NCBI GenBank assembly: GCA_011364985.1
Contig: RDOC01000002.1
Location: forward strand, 128,001 to 192,000
DNA length: 64,000 nucleotides
DNA from: Candidatus Thorarchaeota archaeon
Lineage (GTDB): Archaea > Asgardarchaeota > Thorarchaeia > Thorarchaeales > Thorarchaeaceae
Direction of reading: 5' to 3'
The notes under the pieces are model-generated. The model had not been told where the DNA came from and searched no databases. It worked only from the letters and a program-made list of their open reading frames with translations. Below are positions 12,414-56,578 of this stretch, piece by piece (positions within the stretch are counted from its first letter, which is position 1; each line of letters begins with the position of its first letter). Made by a program: the position numbers and the translations under genes.

Positions 12414-12523
12414 GGGGCGGTGGTCTAGCCCGGCTATGATGTCTCGCTTACACCGAGAAGCCACTGAAGCCTTACGCTCTTTGGACTCGAAGGTCGCTGG
12501 TTCGAATCCGGCCCGCCCCACCA
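12414..12523 (+). tRNA. tRNA-Val(TAC) with 32-nt non-canonical intron at 44/45 (12460-12491)
   Basis: GGGGCGG/CCGCCCC acceptor stem, anticodon TAC 12449-51, BHB CGAG-AAG/CTCG-AAG, TTCGAAT, encoded CCA. Confidence 0.92.
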
Positions 12524-13813: not shown

Positions 13814-13934
13814 GCGGAAGTAGCCAAGCCAGGCCAAAGGCGCCAGACTTAAGATCGTATGTACAGTGGGGTCATACGAAGAGGACATCTGGTCTGGAAG
13901 CAGTTCGTGGGATCGAAGCCCACCTTCCGCACCA
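13814..13934 (+). tRNA. tRNA-Leu(TAA) with ~33-nt intron at 37/38 (13854-13886)
   Basis: GCGGAAG/CTTCCGC acceptor stem, CCAGA/TCTGG anticodon stem, long variable arm, intron hairpin TCGTATG/CATACGA, CCA. Confidence 0.92.
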
Positions 13935-19346: not shown

Positions 19347-19515
19347 GCCGCAGTGGCCTAGCCTGGCAGGGCGCGAGACTCATAATCTGACTGGAGTTCC
19401 CGGTCAAAAATACGGGGTCAGTTCTCAGCCCAAGCTTTGTTGAGGCATCTCGAAGTCGTGGGCTCGAAACTCCGTTACGTTACGTGATGGGGCGAACATC
19501 CCACCTGCGGCACCA
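19347..19515 (+). tRNA. tRNA-Met(CAT), elongator-type, with two introns (37/38: 19385-19446; 59/60: 19469-19498)
   Basis: GCCGCAG/CTGCGGC acceptor stem, CGAGA/TCTCG stem, CAT 19381-83, BHB-type junctions, CCA; Met versus Ile2 judged only from the acceptor sequence. Confidence 0.85.
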
Positions 19516-21798: not shown

Positions 21799-21953
21799 TG
21801 GAGCCCCAGGCGAGATTTGAACTCGCGATCTCCTGATTTCTTAGTCGGCAGAAGCACTTACGACATACAAGTCAGGCGCAGTGTCGACCTGCAATATTTG
21901 TCATCCCAAACACAGGGGCAGAATATCACAGTAGGCCGCTTTGCTACTGGGGC
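21799..21953 (-). tRNA. tRNA-Thr(TGT) with two introns (37/38: 21838-21865; D-loop about 21882-21931)
   Basis: Reverse strand GCCCCAG/CTGGGGC-T-CCA, CCTGA/TCAGG stem, TTCAAAT; D-loop junctions approximate. Confidence 0.87.
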
Positions 21954-26745: not shown

Positions 26746-28023
26746 TCATTCTGCAATCTTTGCAGTAATCCTTGCACCTTCTTCGAGAGCATCTACAAGA
26801 GAGCTTCCTTGACGTGTCTTTATCCGAATAGAACTCTCTCCGTTTCGGCCAATCACAGTAGTGAGAAGATACATATCATCTGCAAATATTTCTACTCGTT
26901 GCTTTGCATACTTCCGACCTGCATATAGTGTGACTTTCTTCTTACTGTAACTGACCGACACTGGAACTGATTCCCCAGGTTTACCACGTCTTTCTTGTTC
27001 TCTTCTGAATGAAACGGCACCAGTTCCCCGGACCGGAACTACAACTTTTTCGCCGCCAAATGAGAACATCTCGAACTCCAATGCACCTCTCTCAAAATCT
27101 CTTACTTCCACTACTGGTCGTGCCAAGTCTCGCTGCGTACCACCAAAACCTGTTGGCAGTCTCACCTTTAGTGAGAGTGAAGAAACCTTTGCCACTCTTC
27201 CATCTTCAATATGAACCACTGTGTCAACAGTGCTAGGAATTTGCCCAAGCTCAACTCGTCCTCCAAGGATGAGTCTTTGAAGCGCATCAATTGCTGAGCC
27301 CGCATGTACGACTCCTACCATGCCTACCCCTGCTGATCTAAGGTCTGAATAGGCTTGGAAGTCTGCATTTTTTCTCAGCTCATCATAAACAACATAGTCC
27401 GGACGAACAAGAAGTAAAACATCCGCAGCTTTTTCCATACTATTATCAAGAGGTGCATACTGCACAATACTTTCCTCGACTTGAAGGTCACGAGGCTGTT
27501 CCAAGGTCTTCACTACATTGCCTTTCCTACTATAAAACTCGGCAAGCGCAGCAGCAAAGGTACTCTTACCAGAGCCAGGCGAACCTGAGATTAGTATTCC
27601 TTCTGCTCTACTCTCAAGTCTATTCATCAGTTTCTCGCCAAGCCCGTAGTCCTCAAGATTTAGCTTGACAATTGGCCGAATAGCTGAAATCTCCATCTTG
27701 TCCGCAAAGGGGCGCATTGCAATTGCAATTCTTAGGTTCCGAAGCTGAACCACAGAAGCGCCATCCTCCTCAATCTCAATGAAAGACTCTGAGTCATATC
27801 GTGCCGTTTCAAGAATTGCTTCAGCAATTGCATTAAGTTCCTCATAGGTGAGAATTCTATCTGATAAATCAACAAGTTCCCAGTTGCCAGGTTGTCCTCT
27901 CTTTGCCCTTGGTGGATTTTTCTCAATCAGATGAACACTCATCGTATGTTCGTCGAAGAAGGCCTCTAGTTTGGAAATATACTCGCTGTACCCCTCATAT
28001 ATTCCATCATCATTTTTCCGCAT
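26746..28023 (-). CDS. PINA-family (VirB11/PilT-like) ATPase lacking the N-terminal PIN domain
   Basis: GILISGSPGSGKSTF, LLLVRPDYVVYDELR, GVGMVGVVHA, DLARPVVEVRDF; start moved to ATG 28023, which overlaps the endA stop. Confidence 0.85.
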   Translation of the reverse strand: MRKNDDGIYEGYSEYISKLEAFFDEHTMSVHLIEKNPPRAKRGQPGNWELVDLSDRILTYEELNAIAEAILETARYDSESFIEIEEDGASVVQLRNLRIAIAMRPFADKMEISAIRPIVKLNLEDYGLGEKLMNRLESRAEGILISGSPGSGKSTFAAALAEFYSRKGNVVKTLEQPRDLQVEESIVQYAPLDNSMEKAADVLLLVRPDYVVYDELRKNADFQAYSDLRSAGVGMVGVVHAGSAIDALQRLILGGRVELGQIPSTVDTVVHIEDGRVAKVSSLSLKVRLPTGFGGTQRDLARPVVEVRDFERGALEFEMFSFGGEKVVVPVRGTGAVSFRREQERRGKPGESVPVSVSYSKKKVTLYAGRKYAKQRVEIFADDMYLLTTVIGRNGESSIRIKTRQGSSLVDALEEGARITAKIAE

Positions 28024-28651
28024 TTGTTTCAACTCCAATCTTGGGCAATGTAGCTTGTGATACCTTGTAGTAATTGACCTCGCCATTCTGGTCGACAAGG
28101 GCAAAAACCAATTTCTTTCTTGACGCCAAGGCTGTTTCAGTAATCAAGTCCAAATCGGTAAGGGATATTGCTTCATCTTCTTTTAGAACATATATCAACT
28201 GGTTGGCACTGGCAGCTCCGGGGCGTTCCCCACGTGCATATACGCGGAATCCAATCACATCCCCGAATCCTTGTCGGACGGCATACCCACGACTTCTCAG
28301 GTCTCTGAAAACCAAGTAGTTCACCCAAAGTCTTGGATTCAAATCTTGAAGTTGATTCACAATATCCTTTGCAGTCACTGATTCTCCTGATTTTGATGTC
28401 ACAACAACTCGTTTTCTTTCGATAAGATGAAGAAGTTCTACGGGTTCCAGTTCCAATCTGCCATCTTTAAGACGAGTACCATAGAAGCCCTGTTGCGAAA
28501 TCCTATCAGCATCATCGCTAATCACATACCCTTTCCCATTTTCGAAGACCGTAGTTGCAGGCTCTTCTTCTAGTTCAATTTCCTCTATGAAATCGTCTTC
28601 AGAATCTTCCAAATCGACCGGCTCAAAACCAGTGCCATTTTTGTCCGACAA
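28010..28651 (-). CDS. endA: tRNA-splicing endonuclease subunit, probably structural (non-catalytic)
   Basis: LEPVELLHL, YLVFRDLRSRGY, FRVY, RKKLVFALVD...VNYY; no His at the catalytic position. Confidence 0.85.
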   Translation of the reverse strand: MSDKNGTGFEPVDLEDSEDDFIEEIELEEEPATTVFENGKGYVISDDADRISQQGFYGTRLKDGRLELEPVELLHLIERKRVVVTSKSGESVTAKDIVNQLQDLNPRLWVNYLVFRDLRSRGYAVRQGFGDVIGFRVYARGERPGAASANQLIYVLKEDEAISLTDLDLITETALASRKKLVFALVDQNGEVNYYKVSQATLPKIGVETNAEK

Positions 28652-40694: not shown

Positions 40695-41401
40695 CTAGCT
40701 GCATCTTCCTTGATGAATATCAGGAACATCGGCAGGACAACTATCAGATAAGCGTCCTTGTTCACACTTTCAAGGCTACTGAGTTATCATTCTACTGCCA
40801 CTAGAGATGCAACGTAGCTCTATCTAGCAGCATTCGTACTATTTTGCATCTTGTGCATGGTGCTGATGATTGTACAAACTCAACCTTTCTGCCAATTCAC
40901 TGAGGATACAGCCGCCATCACCATTCTCCAGCAGCTTAGCACTTACCAAACTGACTATCTATATAGTACCCCGACCGAATATATAAAGCATAATTAATTA
41001 ATCAATTAACTTATTTATTACTGCGGCGATGCAAAGAGGATTACTTGAATATCGTGTTTATCATATTCATCTTAGTTCATCCAGCAAAACCTGAAACTCT
41101 AGCAAAAACTCATTTTCATTTACAATATTGTAGTCTGATAAATCTCCCTCTTCAAGCTGGTGATATAAGTATTCCAGAAGAGATTCATGAAATCTTTCTG
41201 TTGACAGTTACATCGGATGGAGAAAGGGTGGAATACAGAAGTTACATGCAGTTGAATTCGCTCAACATTGGAGTGATGTAACAGGTCCGCAATGGACTGT
41301 AGGGGATGTCAATATCAATACGCATAACTCGAAATGAATTGGAGCTAGGGAGGTCAAGCAGCAATCCTTTTAACATCATGAACTAGCACAAAATGCGGAA
41401 T

Positions 41402-41598
41402 CGGAGCGTAGCTCAATCTGGCAGTCTTGTGCACATCAGTGTACTCGGCCATTAGCAATGGACTGTAGAGAGCGGCCATCGTGACAGCTGTTCGCAGCTA
41501 TCCATCGGTTGCCGGTTCGGCACGATTACCTGCGAATTGTGCGCCGAAAAAATCGCATGTGAATTCCACAAGTGATGGCAATCCGGCCGCTCCGACCA
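41402..41598 (+). tRNA. tRNA-Tyr(GTA) with four introns (41425-41453, 41469-41499, 41519-41548, 41552-41581)
   Basis: C1:G72 acceptor CGGAGCG/CGCTCCG-A-CCA; removing four BHB-bounded segments gives a canonical 77-nt cloverleaf. Confidence 0.85.
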
Positions 41599-56470: not shown

Positions 56471-56578
56471 GCCCCTGTAGTGTAGTACGGTCAGTACTCC
56501 AGATGACCTGAAGTATCCGGAATAGCATTCAAGACTGTCACTCTTGAGACCCGGGTTCGAATCCCGGCGGGGGCGCCA
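56471..56578 (+). tRNA. tRNA-Asp(GTC) with ~31-nt intron in the D-arm
   Basis: GCCCCTG/CGGGGGC-G-CCA, CAAGA/TCTTG stem, GTC 56537-39; extra segment about 56494-56524, junctions ambiguous. Confidence 0.88.

Follow-up and report, generated by a model that had tools for sequence, protein, structure and literature searches.

Several systems with multiple introns in a single tRNA gene have already been described. In Thermoproteales the number of tRNA introns reaches a maximum of three (PMC4033280). Among Asgard archaea, genes with four introns were tabulated in 2024 for Freyarchaeia (Arg-TCT, Ile2-CAT and Leu-GAG) and Atabeyarchaeia-2 (Trp-CCA; Valentin-Alvarado 2024, PMC11291895, Supp. Data 4), and a recent preprint reports up to five introns per Asgard tRNA, the splicing of none of which has been shown yet (bioRxiv 10.64898/2026.10.13.758758). 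The Asgard tRNAs of these two papers resemble the gene studied here in carrying several short, non-canonical BHB introns per gene alongside two EndA paralogues, but the papers focus on Atabeyarchaeia and Jordi/Freyarchaeia, and Thorarchaeota are not named in the text of the preprint. Internal exons in the 2024 table are at least 7 nt long, except for one 3-nt gap in a His gene marked as 'possible pseudo' and one 1-nt gap that was curated to a single intron (PMC11291895). A dependent order of splicing is known for archaeal pre-tRNAs (Sugahara 2007 and Tocchini-Valentini 2009, as cited in the review PMC3978253). According to the same review, in the nested or dependent pre-tRNAs of Crenarchaeota the BHB of the last intron forms only after the others have gone, as it appears to do in our case, although the crenarchaeal maximum is three introns and the dependence here arises from a 3-nt exon between tandem T-loop introns. 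The tRNA-Pro(GGG) of ARMAN-2 likewise has two introns in one T-arm, at 53/54 and 59/60, but these are separated by a 6-nt exon that is just enough for an independent BHB, compared with 3 nt here (PMC3239211). Ordered BHB processing is also found in Cyanidioschyzon merolae, where it was shown by RT-PCR; that system differs in being eukaryotic, with three introns and independently folding motifs whose order follows stability or position (PMC3728597).

The gene described here occupies 197 nt of the window, by which we mean the whole 64,000-nt stretch of a Candidatus Thorarchaeota contig that was analysed. Codes of the form G### denote genomes and L### orthologous tRNA-Tyr loci, G000 being the genome under study, which is 1.7 Mb in size and 74% complete. 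The original prediction held that the gene reduces to a canonical 77-nt tRNA-Tyr(GTA) when segments of 29, 31, 30 and 30 nt are removed. Our analysis confirms both the coordinates (41425-41453, 41469-41499, 41519-41548 and 41552-41581) and the product, to which ARAGORN gives a score of 122, and the sites at 22/23, 37/38, 56/57 and 59/60 as well as the central helices are as claimed. Five exon pieces of 23, 15, 19, 3 and 17 nt remain. The features of the locus are as follows.

41359 to 41375, plus strand: putative archaeal BRE/TATA-like promoter, with TTTTAA at 41369-41374
41402 to 41424, plus strand: exon 1, positions 1-22 and 17a, bearing the identity base C1
41425 to 41453, plus strand: intron 1, 29 nt, at 22/23, central helix TGGC/GCCA
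41454 to 41468, plus strand: exon 2, positions 23-37, with the anticodon GTA
41469 to 41499, plus strand: intron 2, 31 nt, at the canonical 37/38 site, strict BHB
41500 to 41518, plus strand: exon 3, positions 38-56
41519 to 41548, plus strand: intron 3, 30 nt, at 56/57, CGGT/GCCG helix and 8-bp inner stem, outer helix absent
41549 to 41551, plus strand: micro-exon AAA, T-loop A57, A58 and A59, set by two BHB registers and the same in G002/L002
41552 to 41581, plus strand: intron 4, 30 nt, at 59/60, TTCA/TGGC (3/4 pairs) with the T-stem as outer helix, a motif present only once intron 3 is gone
41582 to 41598, plus strand: exon 5, positions 60-76, with G72, A73 and an encoded CCA

The spliced product has the GUA anticodon, the C1-G72 pair, A73 and a short variable arm, while the unspliced gene is called by neither ARAGORN nor Rfam. 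A BRE/TATA-like motif also lies about 30 nt ahead of orthologous tRNA-Tyr genes. Logan's separate assembly of a marine-sediment run, a possible source of the genome, contains an identical gene sequence at a depth of ~32, and an exact search of metagenome contigs for the splice junction gave no match. No RNA run was listed as containing the stretch, and two metatranscriptomes of the same study yielded nothing for the gene, which speaks neither for nor against its expression. The gene had been proposed for a check as the sole tRNA-Tyr, and we found no second one in this genome, which at 74% completeness could have an extra copy unassembled. A beam search for splice sites recovered introns 2, 3 and 4 unaided and ranked out intron 1, because its inner stem begins after an internal loop.

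To evaluate the junctions we used a BHB criterion of a 4-bp central helix between two 3-nt bulges carrying the cut sites. Introns 1 to 3 each have 4/4 central pairs, all of them Watson-Crick in TGGC/GCCA and three Watson-Crick plus one G-U in both CTGT/GCAG and CGGT/GCCG. The TTCA/TGGC helix of intron 4 consists of two Watson-Crick pairs, one G-U pair and one mismatch. In the primary transcript the register of intron 4 reads GAAA/TGGC, with 2/4 pairs and no outer helix; after removal of intron 3 it has 3/4 pairs, the 5-bp T-stem as outer helix and an inner helix. The original prediction, which placed the AAA exon at 41549-41551 and made the TTCA strand dependent on the loss of intron 3, is borne out on both points. 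Two other registers of intron 4, 57/58 and 58/59, give the same product and were rejected on their poor motifs. Since the mismatch at the position-54 pair is also seen in the 59/60 introns of the tRNA-Asn and tRNA-Met genes of the same genome, it may well be tolerated at this site. No tabulated junction in the genome has fewer than 3/4 pairs after upstream neighbours are taken out; of the 59/60 motifs it contains, that of intron 4 is the weakest. Nearest-neighbour folding models penalise bulges and leave the enzyme out. By such folding the central helix of intron 4 has a probability near 0 and lies ~2 kcal/mol above the open form, and that of intron 3 reaches a probability of at most 0.14; these probabilities give no support to any T-arm central helix, nor can the order of removal be ranked from them. 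When 41519-41581 was shuffled with dinucleotides preserved, 0/200,000 shuffles could be parsed into consecutive BHB introns as good as the two observed, and 394 did so at lenient thresholds, the thresholds having been taken from the observed values.

On the 5' side of the cut, a BHB motif draws on six bases of the exon, of which four pair in the helix and two lie in the bulge. Because the 3-nt exon falls short of these six bases, intron 3 would probably be removed before intron 4, and the appearance of the intron 4 motif only after that removal is the mark of a dependent order at the sequence level. We therefore regard it as likely that intron 3 is cut and ligated ahead of intron 4 in a strict order. 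In the mechanism we propose, the locus would be a working tRNA-Tyr(GUA) gene with four independent introns of ~30 nt, each cut at its BHB motif by a two-subunit EndA and sealed by RtcB. The primary transcript could already form the motifs of introns 1, 2 and 3, and the first two of these introns seem to be independent. On its 5' side intron 4 would need U54-A57 for the helix and A58-A59 for the bulge, of which the exon supplies three bases; C56 would be joined to A57 first, and only then would intron 4 become a substrate. With intron 3 removed before intron 4, the AAA would stay attached and never be a free trinucleotide. We infer expression, cleavage and splice order of this precursor alike. 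Other genes of the genome show what somewhat longer exons allow. A 6-nt exon in tRNA-Asn leaves room for independent splicing of the neighbouring introns, and in the three-intron tRNA-Gly(GCC) (G000:C16:36642-36807, plus strand), one exon of which is 5 nt long, the last motif improves from 3/4 to 4/4 pairs once its neighbour is removed, so that the 5-nt exon costs one pair.

The processing enzymes are encoded in the genome. A catalytic EndA on contig C11 combines the Tyr/His/Lys triad with the crenarchaeal-loop Lys, which aligns to K44 of the Aeropyrum enzyme; the protein is 72% identical to a Ca. Thorarchaeota MAG EndA and matches a Nitrososphaeria protein at 46% and Aeropyrum EndA with an E value of 1.7e-46. 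Aeropyrum K44 has been tied to broad specificity, and EndA enzymes of two subunits that carry this loop cleave relaxed motifs (PMC3241643). The window itself contains a second EndA gene.

28010 to 28651, minus strand: EndA paralogue in which the catalytic His and the specificity loop are missing, a candidate structural subunit, 13 kb from tRNA-Tyr

The EndA of this genome is predicted to be a two-subunit enzyme of broad specificity, and its RtcB is intact. Such an enzyme would also suit a reading with four introns and no strict order, in which a relaxed EndA nicks the junctions of intron 4 without the TTCA helix, or cleaves this intron from a nicked, unligated intermediate. The hairpin of intron 4 itself forms in every state by folding, which fits this reading as well. 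However, the register of intron 4 before removal of intron 3 has only its 2/4 pairs and lacks the outer helix, and cuts on both sides of the exon ahead of ligation would release the AAA, so we consider an unordered pathway unlikely.

Comparison with orthologs bears on whether the T-loop holds one insert or two. By gene length, the 54 complete orthologs of the family comprise 22 with no intron, 17 with one, 11 with two, one with three and three with four. The 22 intron-free orthologs have the same mature frame, with exons meeting at the same points and the T-loop TTCAAAT in nearly all of them, and each of the four intron sites is occupied in some ortholog without its neighbour. The sole intron of L007 is at the 22/23 site, and intron 2 has close homologues in L003 and L037. 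G020 (L008) lacks intron 4 but has a homologue of intron 3 whose junctions are the same and in which 12/12 pairs are kept, two of them changed on both sides, a covariation that involves three sequences only and is equalled by 49/500 shuffles. The 59/60 intron of G011 (L009) is unrelated, has a perfect TTCA/TGAA helix and occurs without a 56/57 partner, and the tRNA-Phe of the genome under study has a lone 56/57 intron whose junctions are the same as those of intron 3. The same 56/57 and 59/60 pair is found in another species, G002, where intron 4 is identical and intron 3 matches at 26/30, while the 5' half, the acceptor stem and the other introns of that allele differ from those of the gene studied. 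Among 86 genomes an identical copy of intron 4 occurs in G002 only. Since the RtcB genes of other family members are only ~72% identical to that of this genome (the G002 gene not being among those compared), the shared T-arm block suggests either patchy transfer or strong constraint. A family-wide search for a second T-loop insert behind a 56/57 intron gave clear cases in G000 and G002 only; its four other matches were no more than the reversed control gave. This comparison backs the four introns and the 3-nt exon of the original prediction, and we are almost certain that the tRNA-Tyr gene has four separate introns.

A gene with three introns and no micro-exon would result if the T-loop insert were one 60-nt intron at 57/58 (41520-41579), leaving the T-loop TTCGAAT. 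This single cut gives an equally good tRNA (ARAGORN 123.7), base 41519 is a purine in both species, and gap alignment with the match and insertion scores of the 2026 preprint turns introns 3 and 4 into one 60-nt insert, so that the gene appears with three inserts. It is also the only single excision that keeps a normal T-loop, but its junction is without a usable motif: it has one mismatch, two G-U pairs and one A-U pair, lacks an inner helix and clashes with both hairpins. In addition, intron 3 stands alone with the same boundaries in L008, and 60 nt compares poorly with the 28-32 nt of nearly all introns of the genome. Excision of 41519-41581 as a whole, which the original prediction had named as the case against it, yields a computed product with a 4-nt T-loop. 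A single T-loop intron is thus very improbable. That the gene is defective or wasteful, with a GCCG/TGGC helix skipping the AAA and intron 4 and Tyr decoding left to a copy unassembled in the 74%-complete genome, is scarcely credible, for although this helix, GCCG(41543-46)/TGGC(41576-79), has 4/4 pairs with both cut sites on real junctions and is favoured in the isolated T-arm (-27.3 vs -20.3 kcal/mol), its 5' bulge has 6 nt instead of 3, its probability in the full precursor is at most 0.04, the tRNA-Tyr exons are undamaged, the arrangement is preserved in a second species, and two tRNA-Tyr gene starts occur in only 2/56 genomes. At a different locus, L042 of G088, the tRNA-Tyr 5' half ends at the anticodon and is followed by unrelated AT-rich DNA; another gene start lies elsewhere in G088.

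Four separate introns in one tRNA gene do not constitute a record. The maximum of three given in the original prediction is outdated, since four (PMC11291895) and up to five (bioRxiv 10.64898/2026.10.13.758758) have been documented and a tRNA-Asn(GTT) gene of the same genome has five, and the idea of a record was rejected. This tRNA-Asn gene (G000:C16:187305-187529, minus strand) contains five BHB introns of 29-32 nt at 22/23, 28/29, 37/38, 43/44 and 59/60, every one of these sites being also occupied in orthologs; it has two 6-nt exons and no encoded CCA, its spliced form is canonical (ARAGORN 125), and its five introns equal the highest count in the preprint. The tRNA-Tyr case is an extreme form of a known phenomenon, neither a record in intron number nor a new mechanism, and what distinguishes it is the 3-nt exon. 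No well-supported 3-nt internal tRNA exon was found in the literature compared, in which Sugahara 2007 and Tocchini-Valentini 2009 figure as cited in PMC3978253. This exon bears the invariant A58, and the precursor offers a natural substrate for studying the minimum size of a tRNA exon and the alternation of EndA and RtcB (cut, ligate, cut) on one molecule, with orthologs that carry either T-loop intron alone as ready controls. Censuses based on gap alignment fuse such intron pairs, and Asgard intron counts may therefore be too low.

An RNA scaffold remnant also lies near the gene.

41207 to 41302, plus strand: orphan TnpB-type RNA scaffold remnant, ~100 nt upstream of tRNA-Tyr

The final 14 nt of the remnant (41289-41302) copy exon 2; it has no remnant of a TnpB protein beside it, and shows 82-86% identity over 50-60 nt to the scaffolds that adjoin complete TnpB genes in G002 and G080. 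At L002, L003, L005, L007, L009, L011, L020, L029, L030, L036, L037 and L041, too, a scaffold end is followed by 11-16 nt that match tRNA-Tyr. These tails match differing parts of tRNA-Tyr, several of them an acceptor-stem allele that is not the resident one. Where the resident allele was read, it was set apart by an intron or by substitutions within or beside the stretch that the tail matches. Mobile elements and tRNA introns have been connected in an earlier proposal (PMC3293823). In the present family, the pile-up of introns might be linked to a tRNA-targeting TnpB element whose tails match intron-free or foreign tRNA-Tyr alleles, with intron-bearing alleles either favoured by selection because they escape the element or carried along with it, a proposal that we regard as rather doubtful. 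In its favour, scaffolds within 1.5 kb are found only beside intron-bearing orthologs (13/32 vs 0/22 intron-free; Fisher p 3e-4, a value that overstates the association, as there are about five to seven independent events), and among loci with long flanks the mean number of introns is 2.5 with a scaffold and 0.6 without. Against the escape model, there is an exact match between the tRNA-Asp of this genome and its tail, a scaffold lies directly next to an intron-free tRNA-Gly, one tail, a 41-nt tRNA half, resembles insertion debris, and no target-adjacent motif common to the tail matches was evident. If true, the link would be a route of intron spread of the kind left open by the preprint (bioRxiv 10.64898/2026.10.13.758758).

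Some further observations concern other tRNA sequences of this genome and its relatives. At L115 (G035) and L116 (G080), 1-4 kb downstream of tRNA-Tyr, there are intron-free tRNA-Tyr 3' pieces, some with an acceptor stem unlike that of the resident gene, which resemble attachment-site remnants. The 5' end of tRNA-Asn has a second, inverted copy 3-11 kb away, at G000:C16:176999 (plus strand) and also in G035, G070, G076, G093 and G098; the copy in G000 is a decayed fragment. Within the window, a tRNA-Met(CAT) gene at 19347-19515 (plus strand), missed by ARAGORN, has a 62-nt insert at 37/38, which may contain a nested inner BHB intron, and a 30-nt intron at 59/60. Further intron-bearing tRNA genes of the window are Val-TAC (12414-12523), a Leu-like gene (13814-13934), a 155-nt gene on the minus strand (21799-21953) and Asp-GTC (56471-56578).
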